NCBI GenBank assembly: GCA_021813145.1
Contig: JAKALS010000002.1
Location: forward strand, 35,595-99,594
Source: a bacterium
Lineage (GTDB): Bacteria > Patescibacteriota > Microgenomatia > Levybacterales > UBA12049
DNA: 64,000 nt
Direction: 5' to 3'
The notes beneath the pieces are model-generated. The model had not been told where the DNA came from. It saw only the letters and a list, made by a program, of their open reading frames with translations, and searched no databases. This document shows, one piece after another, positions 42,518 to 61,100 of the stretch. Made by a program: the position numbers and the translations under genes. Each line of letters begins with the position of its first letter. Position 1 is the stretch's first letter.

Positions 42518-42534
42518 TAAATTCTGCCCTCTGT

Positions 42535-43749
42535 ATGAAAATTAAAAAGTGCAGGTCTTGCGGCTCCAAGAACCTTATAAATATTCTGTCTTTAGGCAAT
42601 CAATATCTTTCGGATTTTGTAAAAATCAATAGAAAACCAAAATCTTTTCCTCTTAACATGATTCTTTGCAAAGATTGTTTTCTGGTCCAGCTCGACTACT
42701 CGGCTCCTCAAAAATATTTGTATACCGAAAGATACGGCTATAAATCAGGAATTAACCAAACAATGCAGAATGAGCTAAAAGAAATTGCCCAAAAATCCTT
42801 AAAACTTGCGGGAAAATCAAAAGATAAAATAATCGCAGTAGATATTGGCGCTAACGATGGAACTCTTTTAAAAAATTATCCGTTGAGTGTCTACAGAATT
42901 GCCGTAGAACCCATAAGAAAATTTGCAAAAGAAGCAAAAAAATCTTCCGATAAAGTTGTCAACGATTTTTTCACCTACGAATCTTTCAACAAAAATATAA
43001 AGAATAAAAAAGCAGACATTGTTACCGTTATTTCTTGTTTTTACGATATGGAAGAACCGAATAAATTTATCTCGGATGTAAAAAAAATTATGAAAGAAGA
43101 CGGAATATGCGTAATACAGCAAAACTATCTGGTAAGTATGTTAAAACAGAATGCCTTCGATAACATAGTACATGAACATCTGGAATACTACACCCTTCTT
43201 TCCCTTAATAATCTTTTAGAAAAACACGGGCTTGAAGTTTTTGACGTAGAAGAAAGAGAATTAAACGGGGGAAGCTTCAGGACATATATTGCTGTTAAGG
43301 GGAATAGAAAAATTTCCAAAAGTGTTTTAAAAATGCAAAAAGTAGAGGAAAAATTAGGCCTGAACAAAAAAGCTGTTTACCTGGAGTTTGCCAAAAGAAT
43401 TAAAGATAACAAGAAAAAGATTTATGAATTTATCAAAAAACAAAATGAAAAAGGAAAAACTGTTTATCTTTACGGTGCCTCAACGAGAGGCAATACTCTC
43501 TTACAGTATTTCGGCCTAGATAGACAATTTATAAAAAAAGCGGTGGAAAGAAATCCTGAGAAATGGGGAAAGATAATAGCCTCTGTCGGAATTCCTATAA
43601 TTTCCGAAGAGGAAGCAAGAAAAGACAAACCAGATTATATGCTGGTGTTGCCCTGGTTTTTTAAAGAGGAATTCTTAAAAAGGGAAAAGAAATATCTGGA
43701 CAACGGAGGACATTTCATATTCCCCCTTCCTAAACTTAAGGTAGTTTAA
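42535..43749 (+). CDS. SAM-dependent C-methyltransferase (TylCIII/NDP-hexose C-methyltransferase-like) with N-terminal Zn-ribbon
   Basis: CRSCGS...CKDC zinc ribbon, SAM motif VDIGANDGTLL, and a C-terminal C-methyltransferase-like domain. ATG at 42535 is preferred over the overlapping upstream start at 42484. Confidence 0.55.
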   Translation: MKIKKCRSCGSKNLINILSLGNQYLSDFVKINRKPKSFPLNMILCKDCFLVQLDYSAPQKYLYTERYGYKSGINQTMQNELKEIAQKSLKLAGKSKDKIIAVDIGANDGTLLKNYPLSVYRIAVEPIRKFAKEAKKSSDKVVNDFFTYESFNKNIKNKKADIVTVISCFYDMEEPNKFISDVKKIMKEDGICVIQQNYLVSMLKQNAFDNIVHEHLEYYTLLSLNNLLEKHGLEVFDVEERELNGGSFRTYIAVKGNRKISKSVLKMQKVEEKLGLNKKAVYLEFAKRIKDNKKKIYEFIKKQNEKGKTVYLYGASTRGNTLLQYFGLDRQFIKKAVERNPEKWGKIIASVGIPIISEEEARKDKPDYMLVLPWFFKEEFLKREKKYLDNGGHFIFPLPKLKVV

Positions 43750-44468
43750 ATAATCCTCATCTTTATCACACAAAATAGGGAATTTAAGAGTTCTTTCGTA
43801 TTTACATTAGACTTACCGTACACTCTGTAATTCCATGTTATCGGAACTTCTCCTATCGAATAACCTTTAAGATATATTTTATATGCACTTTCCGAAAGAG
43901 TTATAAAACCTTTTGAATACATCCTTGTTTTTGTTAGATAATTGACCGAGCGCCGGCTGTAAAGTCTAAACCCGCTCGTATGGTCGCTTAAATGAATTCC
44001 CAGCCAATAGTATAAAAATCTGTTTATCATTCTACTCATTATTGTTCTGTCTGGAGCAATATTTATTATTTTTCCTCCGGGCAGATACCTGGATCCTATT
44101 ACAAGATCAAATTTTTTTTCCTTAATTTTTTCCATAAATCTTTTCATTTCTTTGGGATCGTGTGCCAAATCCGAATCCATCTCGAAAACATAGTTTATTT
44201 CTCTATCTTTTAAAGCCTCTTTAAAACCTTCTATTACCGCACTTCCCCTCCCGCCTTTTTTAAATCTTGATATAAGCATTGTATTTCTTTTCCCTTTAAG
44301 TATGGCCTTGAGTTTTTTATTTTCTTTAGGCAAAGAATCGTCTACTATAATTATTTTTGCCGAAGGAAACAGTTTTCTTATACCCTTCATCAAGATAGAT
44401 ATATTCTTTACCTCGTTATACGAAGGAATCACTATTGCAAAATTATTTTTCATAAATAGTAACTGCAA
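43746..44468 (-). CDS. GT2 polyprenol-phosphate sugar synthase (dolichol-P-mannose synthase-like)
   Basis: [21 protein letters not shown] and DSDLAHDP are typical of DPM1/GtrB-like enzymes. Confidence 0.7.
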
Positions 44469-47007
44469 CGGGGATAGTTAATATATTTTCCAAAATAAAT
44501 AATCTTTTTTCCGCAAATAAAGAATAATATTTAAGATTCGGAGAAAACTCTTTTATTTTTTTGTAATGCTTGCTGTTAAGTTTGGCTACAAGTTCCTTTT
44601 TGGGGGAATTTATTATGTAATCCATATTATCGAAATTATTAGTAATAATGACATATGTAGGAAAAGTGGAATTCTGAGCCGAAATAACCGAATACTGGTA
44701 TCTTGTTTGTATATCGGAATTATGTTGCTTAAAGTAAAATTCTTTTAACACAAAATCGGGCAACATCTGGTAGATAGGAATATTTTCTATACCGACTGAG
44801 GCGTTTTCGGGAATATTTGCCAATATCCACTCCGAGGAAGTTTGTCTTGGATCCGGAAAAAACTTTACCGAAAGCCATGAAGCAGACTGAATCACTTGAA
44901 ATGATAATCCCAAAAATAAAATCACAATAAACAACTTTTTATATTTGATAATAAAAAGTTGTTTTATAAAAAGTGCGGATAAAAGAATAATAAACGGCGT
45001 CAAGATCAAAGCCCTATTTCCTCCCCCGTCAACGCTAAATGATATTACTCCAAGCAGGTATAATACCGAGCCAAATAATATCAGAATTTCCGCTTTATAC
45101 CCGTTTATCTTCTTCCCCAAAAATGCAATAGTTAAAAATATTGCCCAGTAAATTATGCTTATATAGAATAACGAAATTAAAAAGATACCGAATATCGATG
45201 GAAACTCTTTAAGTAAAAGGAATATTTGTGATGGATATCCTAAATTAAATTGTGTGCTCGATTCAGGCCCCTGTATCAAAGTTGAATATAAAAGTTGAAA
45301 ATAATTTCCTTTGCCCAAAAGTAAATCGGGTATTCCAACAAAAGCAAACACAAGCCCCACGACTCCGATCCCCAATAGCAGTTCTTTATAGCTTCTATTT
45401 TTGTAAAATAGAAAGTATCCTAAGATATATACGCAAATCAGCGGTATCGCAGTAAATTTCGTGGACATTGCCAAACCTAAAGCAATTCCGGAAAATATAA
45501 ATTTATATATGTTTTGTGTTTTTAATAAATCGATTAAAAAATATAAAAAGACAATTACCCAAAATGTAAGAGTAACATCGTATTTATAGTAGTTTGTCAA
45601 AGATAACCAGATAGGATTAAAAACAAATAGAGCGGTAAAGATGGATGGGAAAATACCTATAAATTTTTTAAGTATCGTATAGATAAACAATGCCGAAAGT
45701 ATCCCGTAAAAAAGCGTATGAAGTCTTAATATTTCAAATAGTATATGCTGCATGGGTAAATTGTCCAAGGTATACTTAATGGCAAACGGGTTTACTATAT
45801 GCAAAAGATAAAAAGGGATAAGAAAAACTATCGAAGAAACTATATGATACAAGGGAATACTTGCTGCTCCGCTTACCGAACCCGTTCCATCTTTTATAAA
45901 TGTTCTCAATGCCTGGGAAAAATGCCACTCATCCATTGCATAAGTAAAAGGATGCGAAGGGCCGGGTATTCCCCAACTTATTAAATAAAATATTAAAGCA
46001 GAATAAATTATCAGGATTAAAAATAAAAATTTATTTTTGAATACGGCTTTGATAAAATTTTTAACTGAAAGACTTTGAAGAAAGCCAAATGATGTACCCG
46101 TAATTACAGCAATATCCGAAGAAAATTGTAGCAATGGAAGATAAAGAAAAGCTTTACTGTCTTTTATATATCTGTAATTTTTATTTATTGACCAGAACAT
46201 GTATGATACAAGTCCCAATGCTATAAATGAGTCAAGGACATAAGACTTCATTACAACTGCAAGGGCAAGAATATAGACTGCAAAAATATATCTTAAAAAT
46301 AAAAATGGTGTATTTTGCCTGAAGTATCTTGCAAACCCGTCTCCTCTTGCATACCCGAAAAACTGTTTAATTGCTTGTAATAAATTTTTTCTTTGCGGCC
46401 AATATACAGTTGCATCTTTAACAAACTTAAATTTATATCCATTATCTTTTAACCTTTTATCGAAAATTAGGTCCTCGCATGTGTTTAATTTCTCAGGATA
46501 TCCGCCCACCCTTTTCCAGGCAGTCTTTCTAAATGCAACTGACCTTGAAGAGGGAAGAAAATTATCCGCATCTATTCTATCTGGCATTACACTTGTATAA
46601 GTAGCAAGACACTTCTGGAATACTGTTTTTGCAACAGGTGAATAATAACCGGAAGAAACATTTATTTTTTTGTCCGAAAAAGGTTTAATAATATTTTTAA
46701 TCCAGTCTTTATCCAAAATGCATCCTGCATCAGATATTAGAATAATCTCGTTTACAGCCTTTTTAATACCCTCATTTCTCCCTACGGACCTGTTACCTTT
46801 TTTAAATATTAATTTAATGTTGGGAATATATTTTTTATGGGGAATTCTGAATTCCGAAATTTTTTCAACGGTATTGTCCGTTGAACCTGCATCTACTATT
46901 ATTATTTCGTCGGGAAGAACACTTTGATTAAAAATAGACTCCAAAAAATTTGTTATGGAGTCTTCTTCGTTAAAAACCGTCGTAATAAACGATGTTTTAA
47001 TTCTCAT
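44443..47007 (-). CDS. Fusion protein: N-terminal GT2 domain + large C-terminal polytopic membrane (GT-C-like) domain
   Basis: N-terminus [10 protein letters not shown]...[10 protein letters not shown] and ISDAGC are GT2. More than 12 TM helices follow. Confidence 0.65.
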
Positions 47008-47054
47008 TAAAAACTTGTTGAAATTATAGCATTTTCTGTTTTAAAATACATTAA

Positions 47055-48896
47055 ATGTGGCTTCATTTATTTACAACCCTGCCTTCAAATATTCTCACGA
47101 ACTTTGAATATCTTAAAGCGGATTTTACGGGTTTTCATATCTCTTTAAATTTCTTCCTCAACTTTGTTCTGGGAAATTTTATATCGGCTGTTTTTCTCAC
47201 ATTAGCACTATTAATCGGTAAAAATATAAAAAAATTATTATTCATGAATAATAATTTAAATTATCTGACTGATTTTGCATTAGGTTCTATATTTATAGGC
47301 ACCGGAGTAGCTATACTTGGTTTTTTCTCTTTAATAAACCGCCTGTCTCTTAGTGTTTATATTTTGTTTTTATTCCTAATTTCTTTTTATCAAGTAGACC
47401 TTAATTACTTTAGAAATGTCAAAAAAGATTTTTTTGCCGACATAAATATTTTAAAAAGGAAAAAATTAGTTTTCATTTGGGTTTTACTTTTTATTTTGTT
47501 AGCGACCGTAAATCTTATAAATCCCGAAATACGGGAAGACCAGTATCATGTGGATTTACCCAAGATGTATCTGGCCCAAAAGACAATAATGATACCCTCC
47601 AAAGAACAAATCCATGTCTCCGCAAGTCCTCTTTTATCGGAAATGACTTATATGCTGGGTATTTTTGTATGGTCCGAAGAATCGACAAGATACATCCATT
47701 TTTTATTTTATCTGTTTGTTCTTTTAACCTTACTGCAATTTTCTAAAATTAAAGGTTATGAATTTTCAATATTTACCCCGCTTCTATTTGTCAGCGCACC
47801 GGTTGTTTTACATGAAACATCGTCTATGTATGTAGACTTTCAGTGGATTTTTTATTTCTTGCTGGCAATTCTATCAGTAATAAAACAAAAAGATATTTTA
47901 ACATCTAATATTTTTCTTACAGGAATCCTGCTTGGAGCTATGGTTTCCTCAAAGCTTTGGACAATAGTTTTTATTCCTGTAATTGTAGTTTTTCTGTTTA
48001 TAGCTGAAAGAGACAGCGGTATAAAGAAAATTTTAAAATATTTTATTATATTAGCTGCAGGAACCTTACTAATATCTTTTATATGGTTTTTAAGAGCATA
48101 TATCCTAATGGGTAATCCGTTCTACCCTGCTTTTGCCAATCAGCAGGTTTTAGGAGAACCGGCATTTAAAGTACCTATTACAAGACTTATTACGCTTAAT
48201 ACTTTCCTTATAAACCCTTTTAACAGTCTGAATATCGTTAGCCCGTTATTTTTTGCTGGAATCTTTCTATTTCTTTACAAATTTGAAAACAATTTAAAGA
48301 TGATAAAAAATAGAATGTTTCTTCTGCTTGGACTAACTTTGTTGTTATATCTTTCGATAAATTACCCTTACGGAAGATATCTTTTAGGTCTTTATGTTTT
48401 GTTTATTTTCTTTTCTTCTGTAGGAATTGCCAATACCTACAAATTTTTATCTGTCAGATTGCTTTTAAATACGGTTTTATTTTTAATATTCGGTTACTAC
48501 TTTATTAATTCCGTAATGGTTTTACCTTATGCTATCGGAATAGATAACAAAAATAACTACCTTACCAGAATTTTATCCAGAGACAACTCGAGCTATTATA
48601 ATTTCGACAACAAATTTAATAAATTTATCAACAAAAAAGATTACGTGGCGACATATGGAATATTCGGCTATTATTATGCGGATTTTAAATATACCGATGT
48701 TGATTATGTTTTTAATGAAGAAGGAGAATCTTTTAATCTATTAAAAGAAAAAGGGGTAACAAAACTTTTTATAAAAGGAGGGGACATAAACTATTTTTGC
48801 TCTGTTTTAAAATTAAAAAACTGTACACCCGATAAATATACTTACCTTTCCGGTTTTATGGGAACCCAACCCTATTATCTTTATGGTATAAAATAG
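47055..48896 (+). CDS. Polytopic membrane protein, putative GT-C glycosyltransferase
   Basis: 613 aa with many TM helices. No signature recognised. The call rests on context. Confidence 0.3.
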   Translation: MWLHLFTTLPSNILTNFEYLKADFTGFHISLNFFLNFVLGNFISAVFLTLALLIGKNIKKLLFMNNNLNYLTDFALGSIFIGTGVAILGFFSLINRLSLSVYILFLFLISFYQVDLNYFRNVKKDFFADINILKRKKLVFIWVLLFILLATVNLINPEIREDQYHVDLPKMYLAQKTIMIPSKEQIHVSASPLLSEMTYMLGIFVWSEESTRYIHFLFYLFVLLTLLQFSKIKGYEFSIFTPLLFVSAPVVLHETSSMYVDFQWIFYFLLAILSVIKQKDILTSNIFLTGILLGAMVSSKLWTIVFIPVIVVFLFIAERDSGIKKILKYFIILAAGTLLISFIWFLRAYILMGNPFYPAFANQQVLGEPAFKVPITRLITLNTFLINPFNSLNIVSPLFFAGIFLFLYKFENNLKMIKNRMFLLLGLTLLLYLSINYPYGRYLLGLYVLFIFFSSVGIANTYKFLSVRLLLNTVLFLIFGYYFINSVMVLPYAIGIDNKNNYLTRILSRDNSSYYNFDNKFNKFINKKDYVATYGIFGYYYADFKYTDVDYVFNEEGESFNLLKEKGVTKLFIKGGDINYFCSVLKLKNCTPDKYTYLSGFMGTQPYYLYGIK

Positions 48897-48914
48897 CTTT
48901 ATGGCTCTTATAAA

Positions 48915-50651
48915 ATGGTTTTTGTAAACATTATCGCTTCCCTTATTTTAGGAGCAGGGCTTTTTGTCTACCGCTTTGTTTATCCTAAGAAAAAAATAAA
49001 TGTATTCGCACTTCTGTTGCTTATTCTGATTCTACCCGTTATAAGCATTACCAGAACGGGAGCATATCAATCGGGAGATTTTGATATTCATATTTACCGC
49101 ACAATGGCCTTTTACGGCTCTTTAAGCGAAGGGCACTTTATGCCTTCCTGGGCGGAAAATTTAAATGCCACATACGGATATCCGTTATTTATTTTCAACT
49201 ATGTTCTTCCTTATTACATTATTTCCTTATTCCATTTTATTGGGCTTAGTTATATTTCAAGCATGAAGCTATTTCTGGCATTAAGTCTTTATCTTTCAGG
49301 AATATTTATGTATATAATGGCAAAAGAAAAATTTAAAGATAATCTATCCGCCTTTACTTCCGCAATATTTTATACCTTTGTTCCCTATCATCTTATATCA
49401 GTACACTTCAAGATTACCATCGGGGAAGTACTGTCTTTTACGATTATTCCCGTTCTTTTTATATTTATTAACCGCTTATTAAAAAATAAAGATAAATTTT
49501 CCCTCATTCTTAGCGGATTTTTCTTAGGACTCTTGGGCCTAAGCCATATTTTTATTGCTATTATTATGGTCCCTATCCTTTTTGTTTATATTCTCTTCTA
49601 TGTTAAGCCCAAAACCGGCATCCTCTATTTTCTCTCAATCTTTGGAATAGGTGCGCTTATTACCTTTTATCAGTGGCTTCCTCCTATTCTTTATAACAAA
49701 TATCTTTTTATACATAAGTATCCTATTGATACCTCTGCTCTTTATTACCCGACGATAAAGGATTTATTGTATGCTCCTTGGAGATTCGGACTGCTTTTCC
49801 AGGGTCCTAAAGGGCAAATCTCCGACTTGATCGGTTATGCTCAATTATTCGTAATAGGTATCTTTGTATACCTACTTTTTAAGAAGAAAATCCCAAGGGT
49901 ATACACAAAAGAAATAATTGCCTGGCTTTTACTGTTTTTAGTGCTGATATTCTTTATTACTCCTTATTCAAAGATAATATGGATACACCTGCCGCTTATA
50001 AGTGATGCGGGAACCCAAAGATTACTTATACCTGTAGCCTTATCTACATCAATTCTTGCAGGCTTTCTTACCTACCTTAATCGAAAAAGAATTTTTCCAA
50101 TAACTCTGCTTATACTTTTTGCAATATTTTCTACAATTCTTAATTGGGGACAAAGAACTGTAATTCCCCAGATAAATGACTCTGTTCTTTCAAAAAATTT
50201 GCCTTATAGCACTTCCCAGGGAGAAGGACACTTCTATGCAAACACCGGGTGGGCAAACCCCAATCATCCCTGGTTTTCGGTGATTCCCTTAAATCATTTG
50301 GAAATTCTAAAAGGTATCGCGAAGTTTACGGAACTAAAAAGAATATCCGTTGAACATGAGTATATTATTAATTCCGTTACGCCTATAAGCGTAAACGAAA
50401 ACACCTTATACTTTCCCGGTTGGTCGGCAACAGATAACAAAAAACCGTTAGGAATAAGGCCAGACAAAAACGGAGTTATAACTTTCACCCTGCCTAAAGG
50501 GAAAAATCTTGTTATACTAAGATATAACGATTTATATTGGTTTAGTATAAGTAAGATTGTTAGCGGAGGATTAATTCTAATAATTATTCTTTTTTCAGGG
50601 TTTTACCTAACTAAGAAGATTTTATACCCCAAAGTTTTAAGTAAACATTAA
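48915..50651 (+). CDS. Polytopic membrane protein, YfhO/GT-C-like
   Basis: 578 aa with many TM helices and a C-terminal extracytoplasmic domain. The call rests on context. Confidence 0.3.
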   Translation: MVFVNIIASLILGAGLFVYRFVYPKKKINVFALLLLILILPVISITRTGAYQSGDFDIHIYRTMAFYGSLSEGHFMPSWAENLNATYGYPLFIFNYVLPYYIISLFHFIGLSYISSMKLFLALSLYLSGIFMYIMAKEKFKDNLSAFTSAIFYTFVPYHLISVHFKITIGEVLSFTIIPVLFIFINRLLKNKDKFSLILSGFFLGLLGLSHIFIAIIMVPILFVYILFYVKPKTGILYFLSIFGIGALITFYQWLPPILYNKYLFIHKYPIDTSALYYPTIKDLLYAPWRFGLLFQGPKGQISDLIGYAQLFVIGIFVYLLFKKKIPRVYTKEIIAWLLLFLVLIFFITPYSKIIWIHLPLISDAGTQRLLIPVALSTSILAGFLTYLNRKRIFPITLLILFAIFSTILNWGQRTVIPQINDSVLSKNLPYSTSQGEGHFYANTGWANPNHPWFSVIPLNHLEILKGIAKFTELKRISVEHEYIINSVTPISVNENTLYFPGWSATDNKKPLGIRPDKNGVITFTLPKGKNLVILRYNDLYWFSISKIVSGGLILIIILFSGFYLTKKILYPKVLSKH

Positions 50652-51681
50652 CCAAATTTTCCCAGGTTTGATTTTTAACCCAATTATACGCGTCATTAAT
50701 TTCCAGTTCGCTGTTTTTATTTAAAACTTTAATTAATTTTTCCGCAATTTCTTCTCCGTTTTTTGCAATAATTATATCTTTTGCAAAAGGCGCCATTTGC
50801 AAATAATCTCTCTTAATTGCATTGTTATATTCTGCAATAACTAACTTTTTTGCCGCCATTGCTTCCAGTATCCCTAGGTATCTGGAAACAAATACATAAT
50901 TTGCAGAATTGATATATTTTTCAACATTATTTATAAAACCTTTAAATTCTACGTTAAGATCGTTTTCTTTTACGTACTTTTTAGCAGCATTTTCGAGGCT
51001 ACCTTCACCTAGAACTGTTAGCTTTAAATCCTTTCCTTTATTTCTTAATATACTTAATGCTTTCAAGTACTCTAATATTCCTGTTTCTTCTTCCAGTCTC
51101 CCGACAAAGACAGCCTCGTTTTTTGATTTTTCGCCCTTAAATTCATTTAAGTCTACCGCCCCGTATGTTACAAATGCAGGTTTTGTTCCATACCATTTTT
51201 TTAAAAAATCCCCTACGCATATATTTCCGTTGGAAAGTTTTTCAGCCAGCTTATGCATGTAAATCGCCTTTCTTCCCGGAATATTATTGCCTTCATATCC
51301 ATGGAAAGTAGTAAATATTTTTTTTCGAGGATATAAAAATCTAAAAAGCAAATACCAAAAGAATACGTCATGGCAATGCACTATATCTGCTTCTTTTATT
51401 AATTCACGTTTGCCCCAAAGCTCTTTCCATATCCTAAACTTCTTCCAACGGTTGTCTTTACCCGCTTCTATCTTAACCGAAGCTATCCCGAATACCTTTC
51501 CCGTGGCTTTAGCGCTTGAAGAATTTGAGTGCTTATCTAAACTATGAGTTTTTTCAAAATTTTCGGAAATAACCGTTACCCGATAACCATTTTCTGCTAA
51601 AATTTTTCCAATTTCTAAAACATGCCTCTCTACTCCCCCAATTTCCGGATAAAATCTCCTCGCTAAAAATAAAACCTTCAT
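50611..51681 (-). CDS. Glycosyltransferase family 4 (GT-B)
   Basis: MKVLFLARRFYPEIGGVERHV N-terminus. Confidence 0.7.
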   Translation of the reverse strand: MKVLFLARRFYPEIGGVERHVLEIGKILAENGYRVTVISENFEKTHSLDKHSNSSSAKATGKVFGIASVKIEAGKDNRWKKFRIWKELWGKRELIKEADIVHCHDVFFWYLLFRFLYPRKKIFTTFHGYEGNNIPGRKAIYMHKLAEKLSNGNICVGDFLKKWYGTKPAFVTYGAVDLNEFKGEKSKNEAVFVGRLEEETGILEYLKALSILRNKGKDLKLTVLGEGSLENAAKKYVKENDLNVEFKGFINNVEKYINSANYVFVSRYLGILEAMAAKKLVIAEYNNAIKRDYLQMAPFAKDIIIAKNGEEIAEKLIKVLNKNSELEINDAYNWVKNQTWENLVNVYLKLWGIKSS

Positions 51682-51763
51682 CTATGAAATTCTAGCATTT
51701 GAGGCTACAATAAACAACCTGCCAATTGCTCTTTAAATATATGAGGTAGCTATTCCGGATTAT

Positions 51764-52756
51764 TTACTTATTTGTGGATTGTTTGACAAAATACCTCTTC
51801 CAGCCGAAGGAAATCACCAGGTAAACAAGAAGGTCTATAAGCCAGAACCACTTGCAGAAGATGCTTGCGGAGTCTACTACAAACCACCAGACACCCTGCC
51901 CCAGGCAGCCTTTATTAATAAGAATAAATATTATGTAGGCCAGAATCGGAATTACCAGCCCCCATACCAGCTTTCTTTTTATATACTTCTTTCCTATCCC
52001 CTTGTTAAACACAAAGTACAAGTAAAGTATAAGTACAATGATTTCCCCTAAAATAATAGGCCACCAGATACACTGTCCGCATGCGCTTACCTTAACCTCT
52101 TCGTTGGTTGACTTGCCCAGTACCTCTTTTTTTGGGGCGGGAGTCGGCGAAACTGCAACTCCTAGGACTTCCTGCCCTCCCCCTATTCCCGTAACGGTTA
52201 CAGGGCCTGCAGGGTCTCCGGGCATACAGCCGTTAACCGCTTTTACCCAGAAAAAATACTGGTTAACCGCAAGACCCGAAATGGTATAGCTTGTAACGTT
52301 GCCCGTATCGGGAACTCCCCATTTTTGAGTATCGGGATTGTCGGAATAAGATATCTGAAACGTTGTAAAAGGCCCCTGCGGGGGGATCCAGGAAAGGGTT
52401 ACCTCCCCCGGCCCCGGCCCTGCAACTGCAACTAAGCTAATCGGTGTACCTACCGGTTTTGTATCGGAACATGTAGACGAAGAGCTTCCCCCTCCTCCTC
52501 CCCCTCCGCCATTATTATTGTTTCCGTTGGGGGACGTAGTAGGAGAAGGTGTAGAAGAAGGATTAGGGTTATTAGCTACCGAACAGGGGTTACCGGATGA
52601 ATTAACAGAATTAATATTCACGCAATTAGAAACAACCGTTCCGCTGAATGCGCTACCCGTATTTACCTCCTGCGCGTACACAGAAAACATGCCGGCCATA
52701 AGGAAAAAGCCGATAATCAAAATAAACCCTAATAAAAATTTATTTAGTTTTTTCAT
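51764..52756 (-). CDS. Secreted/membrane protein: signal peptide, poly-Asn/Gly linker, FN3-like domain, two EVLG motifs, C-terminal multi-TM region
   Basis: Seen in sequence. NNNNGGGGGGGGSSSS linker. FN3-like block is about 65% identical to the 56897..58117 protein. Motifs GQEVLGV and KKEVLGK. Confidence 0.6.
   Translation of the reverse strand: MKKLNKFLLGFILIIGFFLMAGMFSVYAQEVNTGSAFSGTVVSNCVNINSVNSSGNPCSVANNPNPSSTPSPTTSPNGNNNNGGGGGGGGSSSSTCSDTKPVGTPISLVAVAGPGPGEVTLSWIPPQGPFTTFQISYSDNPDTQKWGVPDTGNVTSYTISGLAVNQYFFWVKAVNGCMPGDPAGPVTVTGIGGGQEVLGVAVSPTPAPKKEVLGKSTNEEVKVSACGQCIWWPIILGEIIVLILYLYFVFNKGIGKKYIKRKLVWGLVIPILAYIIFILINKGCLGQGVWWFVVDSASIFCKWFWLIDLLVYLVISFGWKRYFVKQSTNK
52130..52510. repeat. 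Paralogous DNA segment (poly-Gly/FN3 module), copy 1; copy 2 at about 57000-57400
   Basis: Roughly 85% nucleotide identity by eye across about 110 bp (compare 52215-52325 with 57092-57200). Confidence 0.5.
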
Positions 52757-54933
52757 AGAAGAAAGATTTTTAACGCCTTCATTCTTTCCTCAAGGGAAAT
52801 TCTTTTTCCGAATATTGTCACAAACTTATCTTTTTGCCTGAAGCTCTTTAAAGCTATATATGCCATTATTACCGTAATCAAAGCATACAAAGGTCCGTAA
52901 TCGTTACCGGCTGTACCATTTTTAATTGCCGTAGGATAATGAGCTCCCAATACTTCGGATTTAGGATTATTAGGAGTTTGGAAAATAACGGAGTTACTTA
53001 CAAATCCTCCTCCCAAAACCGTAAAGTAAGAATCTCCAAATGCCGTTACTGTTGCGTCATTCGGCCCCACATTTCCATACGCAAAGGCCCGAGCAGTGTA
53101 TATTCCCGAAGGGGTATTGTCCGACAAAACAAGACCCGTTGAGACCTTAACCCCCTGCCCTGCAGGAATATTTCCCAGGTTGTATCCTGCTCCTCCCGCT
53201 GGAACACCGTTTCTCATTAAATAAAGCATCAGTTTTGCGTTATAAACAGTTCCCGTTCCCGTATTTTTTACATTAATAAAGAAGGTAACCGTATCACCGG
53301 GCTTAACATAACTTCCCGTGTTATTAGTGTTTTCCACGGAAAGCATTCCTCCAGATTCCATAGTCGAAGTCGTAGTAGAGGTCACCGTATTGGTATTGGT
53401 ATTTGTATTTGTATTTGTATTGCTTTGGATGCTTGGAAAATTGCTCGCTCCGCCTATATCTCCGTTCCAGTCTCCGAAAATATTAATAAATCCGAAAAAT
53501 CCTACGGAGTTTATAAAGGTGCTGTTTATAAAATTTATTAGAGATATAACACTATATGCATTGCCTGTAGTTATATAACCGCCACCCGAAAGATTATTTT
53601 CTCCCGTATTTGCAAACGAGGAAATATTATTGTTTATTACGGCATTATTATTAATATTAGTATTGGCCGAACAGGAGGCACAATTACTCGTATTCGGACC
53701 GAGGCTATAAAATACAAGAGTCGCTCCTCCCGACTGGGGATCCAAAGCTCCCCACCCTACAAAATTACCGTTCCAGTTGCCGTAATCGTTAATATACAAA
53801 ACTTTAGCATTTACCCCCACAAGATTTGTATTTACAAGATTTATTGTATTTATATCACTTGTAGAATTTCCTGTATTAAAGGTGGCGCTGCCCGAAGCCG
53901 TATTTTGTCCCGTATTTGCACCGGAATTTAGATTATTATTGACATCTGCATTGTTGTTTGTATTAAGATTGACTCCGCAAGTGGAACTTGAACAGTTTGT
54001 TGATGAATTCAAGTCGGGAAGAATTATATTTCCGTTCAGTTTCCCAAAAAGGTTTATTGTAATTACATGAATTTCGGAATTAACAACGGTAAAATTAACC
54101 TTATTAAGAAGCGACACCACCGAGTATGCATTTCCCGTATTAATAACTGCCGAATCTGTTGCCCCATTCACCTGATTGCTTCCCGTATTTGCAAAAGACA
54201 CAAGGTCATTGGAAAGATATGAATAGTTATTAATCGTTGTGGCAGAAATATTAATTGTGGGTTCATTTGGATAGGATTGAACGGCGTTAGCCGCAAGAGT
54301 AAAAGGATCGGAAAGGTTAATATCTCCGTTTTGTGTTACAAAAATATTTATTGTCTGGTAAACAACCTGTGAGTTAACGTTTGTACTATTTACCGTATTA
54401 TCCGCCGAAATTACGGAAGCGGCATCCCCCGTGTTAACAGCAGTGTTTGATGAAACAGTTGAACCGTTATTCGTAGCAGCCGAACCCGTTGCATCAACAG
54501 TATTGTCTCCCGTTATAGCCGAGGATGATGCGGAATTTGTAACATCCGCCGAGTTTGAAGCATTAAGTATTGTATCAACAGGAGAAGGAGTGGGTGTAGG
54601 CGAAGTGCTTGGATCGGGTGTTGTACTAGGATCGGGTGCTGGAGAAGACGTTGTATTAACTGTATCTGTGGTAACCGTAGTGCCCGATGGCGAAGGAGAA
54701 GGGCTTGGGCTTGAACTTGGGTCAGGTGTAGAACTTGGAGCGGGAGTTGAACCTACCGAATTATTTCCGGTATTTGTGATAGTCGTTGAAGTATTATCGA
54801 CCGTAGTAGGGCTGGAAGAAGGACTCGGAGAAGGAGATGCATCATCGGCAAAAGCAGGAGCGGGCACAGAATATAGAAGCACTATTGTTAATGCTAAAAA
54901 TACTGCGAAAATTTTTTTTATTTTTAATAACAT
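52753..54933 (-). CDS. Large secreted Pro/Thr/Ser- and Asn-rich surface protein with C-terminal SEVLGA motif + hydrophobic helix + basic segment
   Basis: Signal peptide, SPSPSP...TPTPSP linker, Asn/Thr-rich repeats, a (NT)n tract, and C-terminal ...KSEVLGAHYPTAIKNGTAGNDYGPLYALITVIMAYIALKSFRQKDK... Confidence 0.6.
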   Translation of the reverse strand: MLLKIKKIFAVFLALTIVLLYSVPAPAFADDASPSPSPSSSPTTVDNTSTTITNTGNNSVGSTPAPSSTPDPSSSPSPSPSPSGTTVTTDTVNTTSSPAPDPSTTPDPSTSPTPTPSPVDTILNASNSADVTNSASSSAITGDNTVDATGSAATNNGSTVSSNTAVNTGDAASVISADNTVNSTNVNSQVVYQTINIFVTQNGDINLSDPFTLAANAVQSYPNEPTINISATTINNYSYLSNDLVSFANTGSNQVNGATDSAVINTGNAYSVVSLLNKVNFTVVNSEIHVITINLFGKLNGNIILPDLNSSTNCSSSTCGVNLNTNNNADVNNNLNSGANTGQNTASGSATFNTGNSTSDINTINLVNTNLVGVNAKVLYINDYGNWNGNFVGWGALDPQSGGATLVFYSLGPNTSNCASCSANTNINNNAVINNNISSFANTGENNLSGGGYITTGNAYSVISLINFINSTFINSVGFFGFINIFGDWNGDIGGASNFPSIQSNTNTNTNTNTNTVTSTTTSTMESGGMLSVENTNNTGSYVKPGDTVTFFINVKNTGTGTVYNAKLMLYLMRNGVPAGGAGYNLGNIPAGQGVKVSTGLVLSDNTPSGIYTARAFAYGNVGPNDATVTAFGDSYFTVLGGGFVSNSVIFQTPNNPKSEVLGAHYPTAIKNGTAGNDYGPLYALITVIMAYIALKSFRQKDKFVTIFGKRISLEERMKALKIFLL
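53387..53422. repeat. In-frame hexanucleotide tandem repeat (GTATTK)x6 encoding (Asn-Thr)n
   Basis: Seen in sequence: gtattggtattggtatttgtatttgtatttgtattg. Confidence 0.7.
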
Positions 54934-55061
54934 AACTGCTCCTTTTTCCTGTTGTTTTCGTACCTATTTTATGCTTAACGCGGTAGGCACTTTATAGGCT
55001 TAATCCTATATTTTTTCTGTATTAAATATCACAGCGATAAGTTCAATTAATTCTTCCGTCC

Positions 55062-55094
55062 CGGGGAGAGCCCTGAAACATTTTGCTCTCCCCG
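55062..55094. other. GC-rich 10-bp inverted repeat CGGGGAGAGC-(13 nt)-GCTCTCCCCG downstream of the 55117..55623 gene
   Basis: Seen in sequence. A strong stem in an AT-rich background. No adjacent U-tract. Confidence 0.3.
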
Positions 55095-55116
55095 CGGACC
55101 GGAAAAGAATTACCTA

Positions 55117-55623
55117 TTAAGGAGTAGGCACGTTGAACATATTGGTGTTAACAACATTGCTTACAACCGAATAGGATGTAGCGGAACCGGTATGAACTGG
55201 AGACTGATAAATAGACGCTCCATAGTGTCCGGTTACCCCGTTATAGCCCGTATTGGACGATGTATTAACATTATTGGACACTGTACCCGAATTTGACAGG
55301 TCAAAATCCAAGAAGTGTACACCGCTGAGGCTTAAACTGCCGGTCGATTGATTCCAGTTAAGCTGGGTTTGAACATTGGCGCTCGAAAGAGCATTGCCGG
55401 ACGTAAGAGAACTGTTCGTTACTCCTCCGTCTTCGCCCCATGCAGTTAAACCGTTATATCCAGTATTAGAGCTTGTATTTACAGAATTACTGACCGTTCC
55501 TGAATTTGAAATATTGACGAAAGCTTTTGGACCTTCATACCACGCAAAAGCCGGAACCGATGTTGCTAAAAGTAATGCTGCTGCTGCTCCTGTTGCTGCT
55601 AATTTTTTGAACATTTTATTCAC
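55117..55623 (-). CDS. Small secreted protein with an internal tandem duplication
   Basis: Signal peptide ending ...VPAFA. About 24-aa block SNSGTVSN(S/N)VNTSSNTGYNG(L/V)T occurs twice. Confidence 0.55.
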   Translation of the reverse strand: MNKMFKKLAATGAAAALLLATSVPAFAWYEGPKAFVNISNSGTVSNSVNTSSNTGYNGLTAWGEDGGVTNSSLTSGNALSSANVQTQLNWNQSTGSLSLSGVHFLDFDLSNSGTVSNNVNTSSNTGYNGVTGHYGASIYQSPVHTGSATSYSVVSNVVNTNMFNVPTP

Positions 55624-55750
55624 CTCCTTCCCTACGTTGGATAGTTTGATATAGTTAATACTATATTCATTATCCGAGTGGAATTAATACTAAATTTATT
55701 TCATGATTAAAAAATAAAAGAATTGTAAGAAGTCTGTAAGAGACCGAAGA

Positions 55751-56158
55751 CTAAGCGTTACTCAAGGTAAAGAAGCTTAAAACTTTATCGAAGAAACCAA
55801 GCACCATGCTTTTGAATGCCGATACTATATTAAAATTTCTTGTTTCCGAAACGGTTATAGTTTTATTAGAAGGGATAGGAAGCTGAGGAGTAACTGTGGC
55901 CGAAGGAGTCGCTATTATTTTTGAACTTGTCGAACTTCCGTTTGATTTTACTTCTACTTTATAGGTCCCCGGACCGGTAGCATCAAGAGTTTTTGTTACC
56001 CTGTTTGCCGTAGTTTCTATATGGGTTTGCACATTCCCGCTTCCCTGTATTTCGGTTTGAACACTGGACCGAGCAGCCGAATTGCCGTTTGTTACTTCGG
56101 CCGAGGAAATTTGGGGGAATAAAAATACCATCACTGCCGTAAGTAAAAGATATTTCAT
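55751..56158 (-). CDS. Small secreted protein (signal peptide) with C-terminal MVLGFF segment
   Basis: Signal peptide FLFPQISSA. No homology recognised. Confidence 0.45.
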   Translation of the reverse strand: MKYLLLTAVMVFLFPQISSAEVTNGNSAARSSVQTEIQGSGNVQTHIETTANRVTKTLDATGPGTYKVEVKSNGSSTSSKIIATPSATVTPQLPIPSNKTITVSETRNFNIVSAFKSMVLGFFDKVLSFFTLSNA

Positions 56159-56304
56159 AAGCTCCTTTTACTTCTAAACAATAAATTTGTCAAGTTTTAC
56201 AAAAGGACCGAACCCAAAAATAAAACCGAAAGCACAATAATAATTATCAACATAGAAAACAGTTTCATCTTTCTTTTTTACTCTTATTAAAAACTTTTGT
56301 CAAA

Positions 56305-56922
56305 TTACTTTTGGGGAATTGCAGTAACAATAAGACGTTTTTCATCGTAAAATCCGGTACATGTATAAAGGGTAAGGGTGTCTGTTCTTGTCGGAGCAAT
56401 TACATCTGTCTGGTTTGGGTAGACTGCTGTAATTTTATTCACTTTATATCTGTACCATTTGTTTTTTGTAAAAATATAAATAATATCTCCTGTTTTTACG
56501 TCTTTAAGGTTGTAGAAAAGCCCCTGTCTTGCATGGGCAAAAATTACAGTGTTCCCCGCAGTCCCGGGATGGCCGCTCCCCAGCCCGTAAGAAGCCGTAT
56601 TATCCGAAAGTTCCCAATATCCGTTAACTACTTTTGCGTCAACTACGGGAAGGTCGATTTCTACCGAAGGAATTAAAATTCTTACCGGATCGCTTTGAAC
56701 AGACTGCTCTGCCAAAAGCTTCGGAGAAATTTTAATGGGATTAGTCGTATTGCTTTGGCTAGTAGTGTAATAAGAAGACCCAACAAGAATTGCAAGCGCT
56801 GCAATAAGAAAAACGAGACTTAAAATTTTGTATTTTAAGGGGTTTTGCTGTTTGGTTCTTTTCCCGGATTTTTTAGGAGTTTTTTTAACTTTTTTCTTAG
56901 GCATTCTTTTTAAATAAGGCAA
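56305..56922 (-). CDS. Sortase (membrane-anchored transpeptidase)
   Basis: Basic N-terminus plus a TM helix. Catalytic His region TVIFAHARQG. Catalytic Cys/Arg in DTLTLYTCTGFYDEKRLIV (TLxTC...R). Overlaps the upstream 56897..58117 gene by 26 nt. Confidence 0.8.
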   Translation of the reverse strand: MPYLKRMPKKKVKKTPKKSGKRTKQQNPLKYKILSLVFLIAALAILVGSSYYTTSQSNTTNPIKISPKLLAEQSVQSDPVRILIPSVEIDLPVVDAKVVNGYWELSDNTASYGLGSGHPGTAGNTVIFAHARQGLFYNLKDVKTGDIIYIFTKNKWYRYKVNKITAVYPNQTDVIAPTRTDTLTLYTCTGFYDEKRLIVTAIPQK

Positions 56923-58117
56923 ATCCCGTAATGCTTAAGATTAAAGAAGCGAATATCTGCAACGCAAAAAGATTATTTGTATCCCCTGCCGTATAGGAAA
57001 GGCCTAAAACACCGGGCCCAGTCGAAGCTCCCAGGACCGCCTGGGTAGGGCCTCCTGTTCCCCCCACTGTTACAGGTCCAACAGCATCTCCGGGCATACA
57101 TCCGTTAACCGCATTTACCCAGAAATAATATTTAGTGACCGAAAGACCCGAAATTGTATAGCTTGTTACATTTCCCGTACTTGATACTCCCCATTTCTTT
57201 GTTCCTGGATCATCGGAATAAGATATGGAATAATCTGTTACAGGCCCCGAAGGAGCCGCCCATGTTAATGTTACCTGACCTGCGCCCGGCCCCGATACTG
57301 CCGTTACATTAGTAGGGGCTCCGGGTTTTTGATCTGAGCATACAGGAGGATTCGAGCTTCCTCCCCCGCCTCCCCCATTACTTCCCCCACCTCCGGGTGT
57401 AGAAGTAGGAACGGGCGTAGGCGTTGAAGTTGGTATGGGTGAAGTTGTTTCCTCGGGCTGGCAATCCTGGTTAGTTTCACAATTACTCTCTCCCACACCG
57501 GGGAATTTCACGCATTGGTAATCATTATTGCAAGAATCGTAATAAGCTTCCGTCTGGCAATCCTGATCGACCTCACAATTACTTTGTTTTATACCCTCAT
57601 GCTTTATGCATTGCCTATCTTCATTGCATGTATAGTAGTAATGAGGTGTCGGAGTTGAAGTCGGTGAGCAGGTCGGGGAAGAACTCGGGCTAGGATTCGG
57701 ACATTCTACCCAGAACTCCTTGTGTTTAACATTTTGCTCGTTACTGCCTTCCCAATTAAGGCGGTAGTGTCCGTTAGACAATGAATAATCTTGTGTCTTA
57801 TAGAACCCGGATGGACTTGTGTTATATGTTCCTGACTCAACTTGTGACCCGTTTCCGGTAGGCTGCCAGGAAAGGATTTCCCATGTGCCTGATTGAGAAG
57901 GATCAGCAAAATAAAAGGCTATATAGAAAGTGCAAACGTGCGGATCGTTATCGGGGAGATCAATTCCTGCGCTAACATCATGAATTTTAACCGTCCCATT
58001 ATTTCCATTATCAGCTTTTGCGATTAGAGGATTTAAAGCCAGAATAAATAATGCCAAAGTAAAAAAAGCAGTTAGTAGAATCAATCCCTGTGCTTTCATA
58101 AAATTCTTGATTTTCAT
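56897..58117 (-). CDS. Secreted surface protein: Cys-rich tandem repeats, poly-Gly linker, FN3-like domain, AVLGA/GVLGL motifs, TM helix, KKNA tail
   Basis: Signal peptide. Two roughly 32-aa CxxxxQC...NCExxQDC repeats. GGGGSNGGGGGGSS linker. C-terminal ...TQAVLGASTGPGVLGLSYTAGDTNNLFALQIFASLILSITGFALFKKNA. Confidence 0.65.
   Translation of the reverse strand: MKIKNFMKAQGLILLTAFFTLALFILALNPLIAKADNGNNGTVKIHDVSAGIDLPDNDPHVCTFYIAFYFADPSQSGTWEILSWQPTGNGSQVESGTYNTSPSGFYKTQDYSLSNGHYRLNWEGSNEQNVKHKEFWVECPNPSPSSSPTCSPTSTPTPHYYYTCNEDRQCIKHEGIKQSNCEVDQDCQTEAYYDSCNNDYQCVKFPGVGESNCETNQDCQPEETTSPIPTSTPTPVPTSTPGGGGSNGGGGGGSSNPPVCSDQKPGAPTNVTAVSGPGAGQVTLTWAAPSGPVTDYSISYSDDPGTKKWGVSSTGNVTSYTISGLSVTKYYFWVNAVNGCMPGDAVGPVTVGGTGGPTQAVLGASTGPGVLGLSYTAGDTNNLFALQIFASLILSITGFALFKKNA
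57450..57660. repeat. Tandem duplication of about 95 bp (Cys-rich module) inside the 56897..58117 gene
   Basis: ctggcaatcctg recurs at 57458 and 57553. The encoded repeats are YYTCNEDRQC... and YYDSCNNDYQC... Confidence 0.55.
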
Positions 58118-58147: not shown

Positions 58148-61100
58148 CTACTGCCTTCTTAGATACTTTCTTAATAAAATTCCGCTTAGTAATACAAATA
58201 GAAGTACTACAAATGCCCAGCCTATCGAAGCCATGCTAATACCCTTTGTCAGCAATGCAGGTTTTTGCGAAGGAGTTGGCGTAGATGAAGGTTTAGCACT
58301 TTCTGTTGCCGCACCCAAAACTTCCTGTCCGGGTGCAGTTTCTTGAAGAGTCGGTTCTGCATTTTCGGAAGTATTGGCTCCTAAAACTCCCTGTATTGTA
58401 TTTGCAGCCAAAACCGATGGACCTGCCGAAGGCGCTCCTCCGCCTCCTGATGAGCCTCCGTCGGATCTCCCGTCTCCGGGAAGTCCAAAAATATAATAAG
58501 TAGAAAAAGCTGTTTCGTTTCCAACCGCTTCGGGAGATCCCGCCGAAATAGTTCTGTAATAATAATCCTGATTTACGGTTAAACCGTTTACTGTTACAGA
58601 ATGACTAGTAACTTTATTAGTATCTTCTACCGTTGAATAGGCATAACCGTAATTCGGAGCGCTTCCCAATGTGGGATGGGAAACTGTATCGTAGACTACC
58701 CTGCTTGTTGCAGGGAAATTAGTTGCCCATGTTATTAATACCGAGTTATCTCCTGTACGTACAATCTTTTGGTCGGAAATAATAGGAGGAACATTGTAAA
58801 CTCCACTAAAGGTTGTGCTGTTGCCGGCATTATCGTATGCAATTGCATTTATCGTAAGGTCGCGGTCAACAACAATGGGCGAAGAATATAAAACTTTTGT
58901 TGCGGAAGTTGCAGGATTTGTTCCGTCGGTTGTATAGTAGACATCTTTTACTCCGCTTAAATTATCGGTAGCAATTAGAGCAACATTTGTCGGATTATCC
59001 GGCTGATCTCCAGGCAACGGATTCGCAGTCAAGGCGGGAGCAGTTGCATCATATACATAATGCACAGGAGCGCTCCATGCCCCGACATTACCTGCGTTGT
59101 CAACGGCCCTTACATAAATCGTAACTCCGCCTTGTTCATTTAATCCGGGAACATGTCCTCTAGAGGTTACATTTCCGGCTACATCACGGCATCCGCCATT
59201 TGGTAAGTCCGAGCATGTACTCCCGGAAAAAGTGTGATGGTCATCGTAGACGTATCCTACTTGATACTTAGCAATTCCGCTGGTATCCGTAACCGCTGTC
59301 CAATTGGCAGTAATTGGTATTGAATTAAAGTAGTCTCCATTACTTGGAGACGTGATTGTAGGCGCTGATGGAGCTGTCCAATCAACTGTATATGTACAAC
59401 TGTTATTAATACCCTCGCTGCCACCAAACCAAGCTGATTTATTTCCTGCTTTATCAACTGCCCTTACTTGAACTCCATAGGTTCCTTGCACAGGCACCGT
59501 CCACCAGGAAGCATTGAAGTATGGAGTCGTAAAAGTTCGAATAGGACCAACGCTTCCATCAGCATTAAAAGAGACATATTCATAATGATCGAAATCCGCC
59601 TCGGTATTAGCATTCCAATACACATCAAAATTCCTTGCAGATGTTATTCCTCCACAAGCAACATCTTTATTATTTACAGTATCTTTGAAATAAATTCCTG
59701 TTGGAACAGCCGGAGCCGTGCTATCTATATTTACCGCCCATGGACCTGACCAATTACTGCAGTTTCCAACACTATCACAAGCTCTAACTTGCCAATAATA
59801 CAAATGGTCACTGGAGCCGGAAGCATCAATTTGAGACGCTGTTCCCGTATTTTTATTATATATAGGTGAAACGAAACCATTACCAGCACCTACCGCAGAA
59901 CTATAAGAAGACTGATAGTAGTAAGTAACGGGTAAGCTGGGATCAGTGACATCCGACCAATCCAAAATCAAACCTCCCGGTTTTACAAAAGCGCCGTTTG
60001 CGGGACTTACTAGTGTCGGAACATTTGGAGCAGTTTTATCAATTGTAAATTTATATTCTGTCGAATTCCCAGCCTTGTCTACTACTACCATTCGATAACT
60101 ATCATCGGCTAGCCAAAAAAGACCAAACCACTCACCTGTATAAATCTTAAATGGACTGGATTCACCTTCTCTATATAATTCAGTTTGTAAATAATTAGTG
60201 TCAATTGCATGAACATTAATGTTTGTACTGCCGTTATATAGGGCTTTTGGAGCAACGCCGTCTATAGTGGCTGTTGGAGCTGTTCGGTCGACATAGATTG
60301 TGCGAATAGCATTTACACTCCAATTCAAAGCCATATCTTGGGCACCTACTTGGACATAGTATTTTCCATCCGACAAATTACTAGGCAAGTGCACTTTGCA
60401 AATTCCGGAATCACTCGTACCACTTTCATTTGAATTGTTATAACATGTGGCAACCCAATGGTTTGAATGCGAAGAATCAGTATCATAAAAGCTAACATTG
60501 ACGCTTTTTAGCGCTACATTATCACTTGCTGTGTAACCAACATCGAAGTTACTGTTAACATATGCATTGTTGGCTGGTGTGGGCAAAGTAAAGGACACCG
60601 TGGGTTTGGTGGTATCTGGTCCATTACAGAGTCCATTAAGATCCGGAGTAGTCAACCAGGTTGAGAAATCAACATTAGTACTAACCTTATCTCCAGAACC
60701 AGGCCCCACCGGTCCTGGACCCGTTGCGCTTCCCCACCAATTGCAGGTTGCTTTGACTAATGGGTTAGAGTTGTCATTCTGAACACCGATTGGATTTCCG
60801 GTAATTTGATTACGGTTAACAACAACCTGATCAGATATAGTATTCACAGGTACTAGAATTCCCGCATTCGCCATATTTGTAATTATATTGTTGAGCACTT
60901 GAATATTTTGGTTTAATCCAGTACCGAAGTCATTAGATAGACGAACCCCTCTATAGCCATTATCAAGATTGTTATTTTGAATAGTAACGCCATTATTACC
61001 AAGTCCTACGAAAATTGTCGAACTTTGATTAAAACCCGATCCTGTGTTGGTGGAGGTATTTTCACTTACATTTACGGTAGTGTTATTAACTAGAACTACG

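Follow-up and report, generated by a model that had tools for sequence, protein, structure and literature searches.

What does it mean that two otherwise different surface proteins, encoded close to one sortase gene, carry the same anchor-proximal module? The question is raised by a stretch of 64,000 nucleotides (nt) from a bacterium of the order Levybacterales (Microgenomatia, Patescibacteriota; GenBank assembly GCA_021813145.1, contig JAKALS010000002.1, positions 35,595 to 99,594), referred to here as the window. In this window gene A (51764-52756, minus strand, 330 amino acids (aa)) and gene B (56897-58117, minus strand, 406 aa), both taken from the list of open reading frames (ORFs), share a block of about 110-120 residues. 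An earlier note on this DNA described the block as a recently duplicated module carried by two surface proteins flanking the sortase, and proposed that it is the stalk which the sortase recognises. The analysis gives a different answer. A and B are ancient paralogs rather than recent duplicates, and the reading that best accounts for the locus, considered probable, is that they belong to a conserved sortase operon in which B is the dedicated substrate of the adjacent sortase and A is membrane-anchored.

Homology and age of the shared module

The shared block is a single FN3 domain bracketed by two invariant Cys residues (CxDxKP ... NGCMPGD), with a Gly-rich linker before it and a short GGxGG-VLG segment after it. 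It occupies 52139-52477 in A (minus strand, aa 94-206) and 57002-57346 in B (minus strand, aa 258-372; PVCSDQKP...NGCMPGD...GGTGG..QAVLGAST), and is anchor-proximal in both proteins, as had been claimed. BLASTP of the two proteins returns it as the sole significant block (A 96-204 against B 260-368, 64/110 identical, 58%, E = 5e-37), and since nothing else aligns, their N-terminal regions are indeed unrelated. Identity is 78/120 with the Gly-rich linker included and 71/109 for the core, 65% in each case, which agrees with the earlier estimate. The Pfam fn3 model (PF00041, gathering cutoff 25 bits) matches A at aa 110-188 (39 bits, E = 9.5e-10) and B at aa 267-341 (42.6 bits, E = 6.9e-11). Six positions (C3, P8, P11, W29, G58 and C83) are invariant in an alignment of 27 module sequences, hence both Cys, which presumably form a disulfide. 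A profile made from the module alignment gave 67,857 matches at E <= 1e-3 among 1.84 billion representative sequences; this search was discarded as a guide to the spread of the single Cys-bracketed module, the top 150 matches all being giant multi-FN3 proteins whose scores sum over repeats.

At the DNA level the two copies form an ungapped diagonal of 251 nt (52179-52429 against 57051-57301, 73% identical), so that the similarity is not merely one of poly-Gly runs. The nucleotide identity falls short of the roughly 85% previously given, 73% being that of the best diagonal and 68-69% that of the codon-aligned copies (245/360 and 227/327). No exact word common to both exceeds 14 nt, about 49% of third codon positions agree, and Nei-Gojobori estimates give pS = 0.56 (synonymous divergence dS ~1.0, near saturation) and a nonsynonymous divergence dN = 0.28, with omega ~0.27. 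Both copies are old and under purifying selection, and the description "recently duplicated" had to be abandoned.

Each copy has its own orthologs in other genomes. A search with full-length A recovered A itself, seven full-length orthologs (P0012-P0018; 41-74% identity, 327-343 aa, matching architecture) and B, listed as P0022, while a search with the B module recovered ten relatives, among them one with the source label Levybacteria. Wherever the contig is long enough to show it, the genes of these B-type relatives lie directly upstream of a sortase gene, with an 8-nt overlap. The A module is 62-86% identical to those of the A orthologs (closest P0012 and P0013, 85-86%), and the B module 61-84% identical to those of the B orthologs (closest P0019-P0021, 82-84%). 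In the same identity matrix the A and B modules of the window are 68% identical, and A-type and B-type modules compared between genomes 50-72%. In 500 neighbour-joining (NJ) bootstraps the two window modules were never sisters (0/500); the A module grouped with P0012 and P0013 in 64%, the B module with P0019-P0021 in 55%, and the modules of poly-transmembrane (poly-TM) type all together in 61%. This tree rests on about 100 module columns and was used only alongside the identity matrix and synteny. As the identity of A and B within the genome lies inside the range seen between genomes, each has closer orthologs elsewhere and the two are never sisters, recent duplication and gene conversion are excluded.

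The kinship of the two families extends beyond the FN3 module. A 1-217 aligns across the whole ectodomain with P0001, a short B-type protein of 253 aa that is sortase-adjacent in locus L006 (47% identity, E = 2e-48), over a span that comprises the signal peptide, an N-terminal xxTG[N/D]A..V.N motif, a PT linker, poly-Gly, the FN3 domain and both VLG motifs; the second motif of A, KEVLGKST, falls opposite QVLGLST(TSG). The head regions of A-type and short B-type proteins match each other by BLAST, and a different head with Cys-rich repeats is found in the B of the window, P0020 and P0021. Among genes in the B position of related genomes, a common C-terminal part is combined with at least six heads unrelated to one another, and in L038 (the closest syntenic relative), L012, L014, L015, L018 and L026 the FN3 domain is absent, with tail and sortase kept. 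Shuffling in the B lineage is therefore real but old, and touches the head and the FN3 domain of B, not its tail; of the domain shuffling or gene conversion that had been suggested, the former is borne out in this lineage, and the latter fails on the bootstrap result. The FN3-less proteins of these six loci have a GDGRSDG-type linker. A repeat linker of the form GDG[R/K]SDG, just upstream of VLG, is seen at the C-terminus (58200-58330) of P7, the large protein encoded upstream of B, and in many FN3-less B-position proteins, the loci concerned being L014, L015, L016, L018, L026 and L038.

The sortase, the tail of B and the membrane domain of A

The genes run in the order B, sortase, P6, P5, P4, A, and this six-gene sortase operon is conserved in Levybacteria and Microgenomates. 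The full order, with a B-position gene at its head, is kept in L038 (GCA_027348085.1) and in L040/L041 (GCA_021785915.1), and a partial version in L001; an A-like gene follows right after the sortase in L026 and lies 6 kb from it in L012. P6 orthologs of 136-142 aa occupy the matching operon position, and P4 orthologs are present in L001, L012, L015, L017, L038 and L040. The sortase gene spans 56305-56904 on the minus strand (199 aa, from ATG 56904), or extends to TTG 56922 in the longest ORF (205 aa). ATG 56904 is the start in the public gene calls on an identical contig of 219 kb, and gives the 8-nt overlap with B. At the far end, the start of A overlaps the stop of P4 by 4 nt (ATGA). Thus B adjoins the sortase as the earlier note had it, and A does not, lying four genes downstream with P6, P5 and P4 between.

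The sortase family is reported to be near-ubiquitous in Microgenomates (PMC6744442). The sortase of the window has an N-terminal TM helix and the catalytic His (IFAHA), Cys (TLYTC) and Arg (EKRL), of which H130, C188 and R196 are invariant in four sortase orthologs, and ends 9 aa past the catalytic Arg. The 205-aa ORF matches the Pfam Sortase family (PF04203, 85.8 bits against a cutoff of 26.6, E = 2.6e-24), and TIGR01076 is also exceeded (55.3 against 39.35). No NCBIfam model for classes A-F or GN is reached (class cutoffs 140-166 bits): the scores are 55.8 for class C, 51.0 for SrtD, 49.9 for class E, 45.7 for class D, 38.6 for class F and 33.3 for GN, and the class A model is not among the NCBIfam matches. 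Among solved structures the best match, a distant one, is to the pilus-specific SrtA from C. diphtheriae (5k9a/6bwe, E = 2.4e-10).

From its N-terminus, B consists of a signal peptide, a unique head, two Cys-rich repeats, a PT linker, poly-Gly, the FN3 domain, GGTGG, VLG and a predicted tripartite sorting signal (56900-57010, minus strand, aa 370-406; VLG-LSYTA-GDTNN, 20 hydrophobic aa, KKNA). The protein ends in ...VLGLSYTAGDTNN, followed by the 20 hydrophobic residues and KKNA, which is the layout of a sorting signal, with a motif that is LAXTG-like and not LPXTG. The Cys-rich repeats are a tandem pair of about 32 aa each (57440-57640, aa ~158-222; YYxCNxDxxCxKxxGxxxSNCExxQDCQ), visible also as DNA repeat D8 (57453-57487 / 57549-57583) and otherwise present only in P0019-P0021.

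The tail was followed through a survey of sortase loci, made with one genome per species and a four-sequence sortase alignment, which yielded 30 loci from Levy-, Ames-, Gottesman- and Woesebacteria and their relatives. For 26 of about 33 sortase orthologs, the upstream gene ends in [VI][LMKQ]G[LI][SA]x[TA][SGA][SG], followed by 6-10 residues, about 20 hydrophobic residues and a basic end. The consensus, derived from 31 usable non-identical tails (32 rows, one of them mis-anchored, with counts out of 32), is [A/Q/E]-V29-L27-G32-L31-[S23/A8]-x-T28-[S23/A4/G4]-[G19/S9]-[D/E], in which L-[S/A]-x-T-[S/A/G] holds the position of LPXTG/LAXTG. Loci with another sortase type are informative. In L025 a second, paralogous sortase (3548-4105) follows an FN3-module protein that ends SVLGLATTGN, an exact LAXTG, and in L019 the equivalent FN3-module protein beside the paralogous sortase (3419-3961) ends AVLGTASFAPTGN. 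In L020 one sortase type, related to that of L040, stands beside an EVLGASTE-LPATG protein, and the window-type sortase beside a protein ending GEVLG-LSAAAG; in L040 a big SpaA-domain neighbour ends EVLGASTY-LPATG. These pairings indicate that the signal type tracks the sortase type. The two sortases of L020 lie at 3497-4108 and 9812-10471, and in two-sortase loci of Microgenomates each sortase adjoins its own signal flavour (LPATG, LAxTG/APTG or VLGL[S/A]xT).

Because some B orthologs keep the tail without FN3, the FN3 domain would be a spacer and not the recognised element. Its most likely role is to keep the variable N-terminal part at a distance from the envelope, as a rigid spacer resistant to proteases. 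The idea that the module is the sortase-recognised stalk is accordingly not upheld: the element linked to the sortase is the tail after the FN3 domain, and this tail is what A lacks.

A consists of a signal peptide, a VNTGSAFSG..VN motif, a PT linker, poly-Gly, FN3, two VLG motifs (52115-52168, minus strand; QEVLGVA and KEVLGKST) and, in place of a B-type tail, a conserved three-helix membrane domain (51767-52117, minus strand, aa 214-330). This domain runs from CGQCIWWP into TM1, which contains a conserved Glu, through TM2 and an outer loop (C..C) to TM3, and is modelled by AlphaFold2 as three helices with a confidence value (pLDDT) of 65.7. Near-invariant in its alignment are C16, W18, E25, Y32, S83 and C88, that is, among others, the Cys opening TM1, the Cys opening TM3, a Trp and the Glu within TM1. 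By the positive-inside rule the basic TM1-TM2 loop would be cytoplasmic and the Cys would lie on the outer face. The conservation of Cys, Glu and Trp argues that the domain is functional and stays attached. A is thus the non-covalently membrane-anchored version of the ectodomain of B. A DsbB/VKOR-like thiol oxidoreductase was considered for the A domain and set aside: distant members keep only one Cys of the pair, and there is no hidden Markov model (HMM) signal.

In the reading of B as a dedicated substrate, its C-terminus would be a classic tripartite sorting signal, with LSYTA in the place of LPXTG and directly preceded by V-L-G. The precursor would be kept in the membrane by the TM helix and the KKNA end until the sortase Cys attacks after Thr (LSYT|A), and B would be transferred to lipid II and peptidoglycan, the FN3 domain with its Gly-rich linker serving as a spacer that may be present or absent. 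A peptide with the B-type signal, QAVLGLSYTAGD, would be the expected sortase substrate. In A, the signal would have been replaced by the three-helix membrane domain.

Several points weigh against this reading. No LPXTG-anchor match (PF00746/TIGR01167) was obtained for B at E <= 0.01 in Pfam and NCBIfam. A few orthologs (L015, L020, L021 and L030) have Ala for Thr, and V-L-G is more invariant than the pentapeptide, so that VLG itself could be the recognition determinant. The sortase fits no class, so that its specificity is not readable from class, and the proposed cleavage site and wall linkage draw on the general sortase mechanism. Moreover, the individual ortholog clades get only 55-64% NJ bootstrap, from about 100 columns.

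Alternative readings of the locus

The alternative that survives best concerns the three genes between the sortase and A, and is compatible with B as a sortase substrate, to which it adds a function. P4 (52753-54933, minus strand, 726 aa) contains four xNTGNAxS...VNxxxVNS repeats, each about 100 aa long, along with an Ig-like domain, EVLGA and a TM helix, and its DNA shows repeat families D2 and D3. P5 (55117-55623, minus strand, 168 aa, range 165-168) is a secreted protein of two repeats (TSSNTGxN ... ITTGxAxS..V..NxVNTN), and P6 (55751-56158, minus strand, 135 aa) is also secreted, a small protein that bears an xxTNGNSA motif at its N-terminus and an amphipathic helix at its C-terminus. A repeat resembling xxTG[N/D][A/S]xS..V..N.VNxN occurs four times in P4, twice in P5, and once in P6 as well as in A. 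In this reading P4, P5 and P6 would make up a surface fibre or sheet whose anchor subunits are A and the short B-type proteins. The N-terminal xxTG[N/D]A..V.N.VN strand of these anchors would dock into the polymer, with one anchor linked to the wall by sortase and the other embedded in the membrane.

This proposal, though on balance unlikely, draws on several lines of evidence. An HMM of the P4 repeat matches the A N-terminus (aa 30-55; 52590-52680) at E = 1e-5, the heads of A are homologous to those of the short B-type proteins, and the gene order is strictly conserved. P5, a conserved and unannotated two-repeat family in which the motif occurs twice, has a confident all-beta model, elongated and with strands of about 20 residues, for which no PDB neighbour was found. 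There are also precedents in PamR (bioRxiv 10.64898/2026.03.03.709456) and in the chaplins anchored by SrtE via LAXTG (PMC5148588). However, the likeness to Pam and chaplins is one of description, and the B of the window has itself lost the N-terminal motif. The P4-repeat HMM matches neither P5 nor P6 at E <= 10, so that their resemblance to the P4 repeat is visual only. Taken together, the repeat data and the two precedents allow a fibre-anchor function but do not demonstrate it.

Two features of these proteins stand apart from that question. In P4 orthologs the TM helix is followed by a conserved stretch of about 30 cytoplasmic residues that ends F/L-K/R-x-R-L-x-x-L-[K/R]-[I/M]-F-L-[L/F], and in the window (52753-52870) ...LKIFLL; such a tail is unusual for a simple type I anchor. 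The C-terminus of P6 (55751-55830), like that of some distant FN3-VLG proteins (P0009 and P0037), is formed by an amphipathic helix, for example NIVSAFKSMVLGFFDKVLSFF, and not by a TM helix; it may be a membrane-surface anchor. Scans of the B head, P4, P5 and P6 against Pfam (down to E = 10) and NCBIfam gave nothing meaningful.

A wider formulation, which must be called doubtful, is that the locus encodes a novel surface polymer of Microgenomates: a fibre or sheet of P4, P5 and P6, two FN3 stalks with the same N-terminal strand, a class-less sortase, the signal VLG-L[S/A]xT[S/A/G][G/S] and a three-helix domain, in which VLG is possibly a new envelope-targeting or processing signal.

It is improbable that the sortase, or a different envelope protease, recognises V-L-G rather than L[S/A]xT[S/A/G]. 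On that reading processing would extend to A, P4 and P7, whose TM segments would be cut away or would serve as pro-regions. P7 (58148-63937, minus strand, 1929 aa) is the large surface protein upstream of B, rich in beta-helix and Ig domains; at its C-terminus an FN3-like domain is followed by GDGRSDG and poly-Gly, VLG in two copies, a TM helix and finally RKYLRRQ, and L[S/A]xT[S/A/G] is absent after VLG. In 36 sequence sources, namely the window and 35 non-redundant loci, VLG occurs 49 times in the 5,040 residues that make up the last 60 aa before the final TM helix of proteins with signal peptides, a rate of 9.7 per 1000 aa against 0.50 elsewhere, or 19-fold (nominal binomial p = 5e-45, an indicative value, as the loci are phylogenetically related and independence is overstated). 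The motif is present in at least four unrelated families (those of B, A, P4 and P7, and large adhesin-like or SpaA-type giants), usually as [E/Q/S/A]VLG[A/K/S/T/E/L], often twice, 8-40 aa before the C-terminal membrane anchor. In favour of recognition are this enrichment, the frequent doubling, and the tails of B type, in which Gly is found in 32/32 and V and L are said to be better conserved than Thr. On the other hand, the distance from VLG to the TM helix ranges from 8 to about 40 aa, the kinship of the loci inflates the p-value, and the conserved Cys, Glu and Trp of the A domain suggest that it stays attached. In L020 and L040, moreover, VLGAST precedes a canonical LPATG, which makes VLG an extra element and no substitute. 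Literature searches found no description of VLG, EVLGA or similar motifs, the sole related paper being the Pam pilus preprint, and none of sortase substrates or signals in the Candidate Phyla Radiation (CPR).

That the locus is a sortase-dependent pilus cluster, with B as a pilin polymerised by a class C-like sortase, is very unlikely. The best solved relative of the enzyme is a pilus-specific sortase, its best partial NCBIfam match is class C, and the substrate gene adjoins it. The class C score of 55.8 bits is nevertheless far under the cutoff of 160, the sortase has only an N-terminal TM helix and no C-terminal anchor, and each locus has one small signal-bearing substrate. A reading of the sequences found no YPK motif in B and no DP[W/F/Y] lid in the sortase, only DPV.

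Least credible by far is a copying of the anchor-proximal module from one gene to another, otherwise different one, by recent duplication or by gene conversion that is still going on. The copies share a strand, are separated by 4.9 kb and have 65% aa identity and unrelated heads, but the idea is contradicted by the synonymous divergence and short shared words, by A and B module orthologs at matching operon positions elsewhere, and by the identity ranges and bootstraps given above.

Gene neighbourhood, significance and known systems

Every gene on the ORF list between 51.7 and 64 kb of the window is on the minus strand. A scan for promoters and terminators over 51-64 kb gave counts not above the shuffled expectation. 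The surface-protein operon adjoins a block at 34000-51700 of glycosyltransferase and GT-C/PMT_2-like polytopic membrane genes, with Pfam labels taken from the syntenic locus L038 and a G+C content of 0.31-0.35, against 0.38-0.43 in the flanks. This block may serve the glycosylation of Ser/Thr/Pro-rich linkers, or may be an acquired island. A gene for a Peptidase_S26 (signal-peptidase-I-like) protein lies a few kb from the sortase operon in L003 (8212-9282) and L038 (3817-4377).

The duplication itself is ordinary. Of moderate interest are the LAXTG-like, VLG-prefixed signal, the dual-anchor paralogs and the operon. Members of the CPR, including Microgenomates, live as epibionts and have not been cultured, and their contact with hosts presumably depends on surface proteins. 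Their wall-anchored surface proteome could be predicted from the signal VLGL[S/A]xT[S/A/G][G/S] with the TM helix and KKNA that come after it. A and B would form a natural pair in which the same ectodomain is wall-anchored in one protein and membrane-anchored in the other, the two-sortase loci offer a natural experiment in specificity, and the conserved operon contributes proteins of unknown fold.

Among known systems, usual bacterial FN3 stalks (PF00041) are likewise anchor-proximal and placed after a flexible linker, whereas the subfamily of the window is Cys-bracketed, is followed by GGxGG-VLG and occurs in single copy. PamR of the CPR Pam pilus, which has an N-terminal strand, two FnIII domains, one TM helix and no sortase (bioRxiv 10.64898/2026.03.03.709456), resembles A and the short B-type proteins by description in its extra N-terminal beta-strand, FnIII and C-terminal membrane anchor. 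Its gene, too, shares an operon with genes for small, secreted proteins rich in beta structure, and PamR is a proposed fibre tether; no relation was detected between the Pam pilins and P4, P5 or P6, no sequence comparison aimed at one having been made.

The canonical LPXTG/class A system shares with the window a substrate with an N-terminal signal peptide, a motif followed by about 20 hydrophobic residues and a basic end, and the catalytic His, Cys and Arg. By contrast, the signal studied here lacks Pro at P3 and seldom has Gly at P1', its tail is missed by the LPXTG-anchor HMMs, and the enzyme fits no class.

Class E sortases (Streptomyces SrtE1/E2, with the long chaplins ChpA-C as substrates) provide a further comparison. 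Chaplins are anchored through LAXTG by SrtE, and class E is recognised by a Tyr in the beta3/beta4 loop, at the S3 subsite, and by an insertion of about 21 aa between beta6 and beta7 (PMC5148588). Common to both are a P3 residue other than Pro, the signal studied here having the form L-[S/A]-x-T-[G/S/A] and L025 an exact LAxTG; an enzyme with an N-terminal membrane anchor; and a substrate gene linked to small secreted beta-rich proteins. The sortase of the window has an invariant Tyr (ASYGLGS) 18 aa before the catalytic His, in the loop that precedes the His strand, which may correspond to the class E Tyr. By contrast, its class E NCBIfam score is 49.9 against a cutoff of 160, SrtE1 is not among its PDB matches at E <= 1e-3, and its beta6/beta7 segment is a loop of about 14 aa, without the 21-aa insertion of class E (PMC5148588). 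The signals differ as well, that of the window and its relatives having mostly Ser at both P3 and P1' and an invariant V-L-G prefix.

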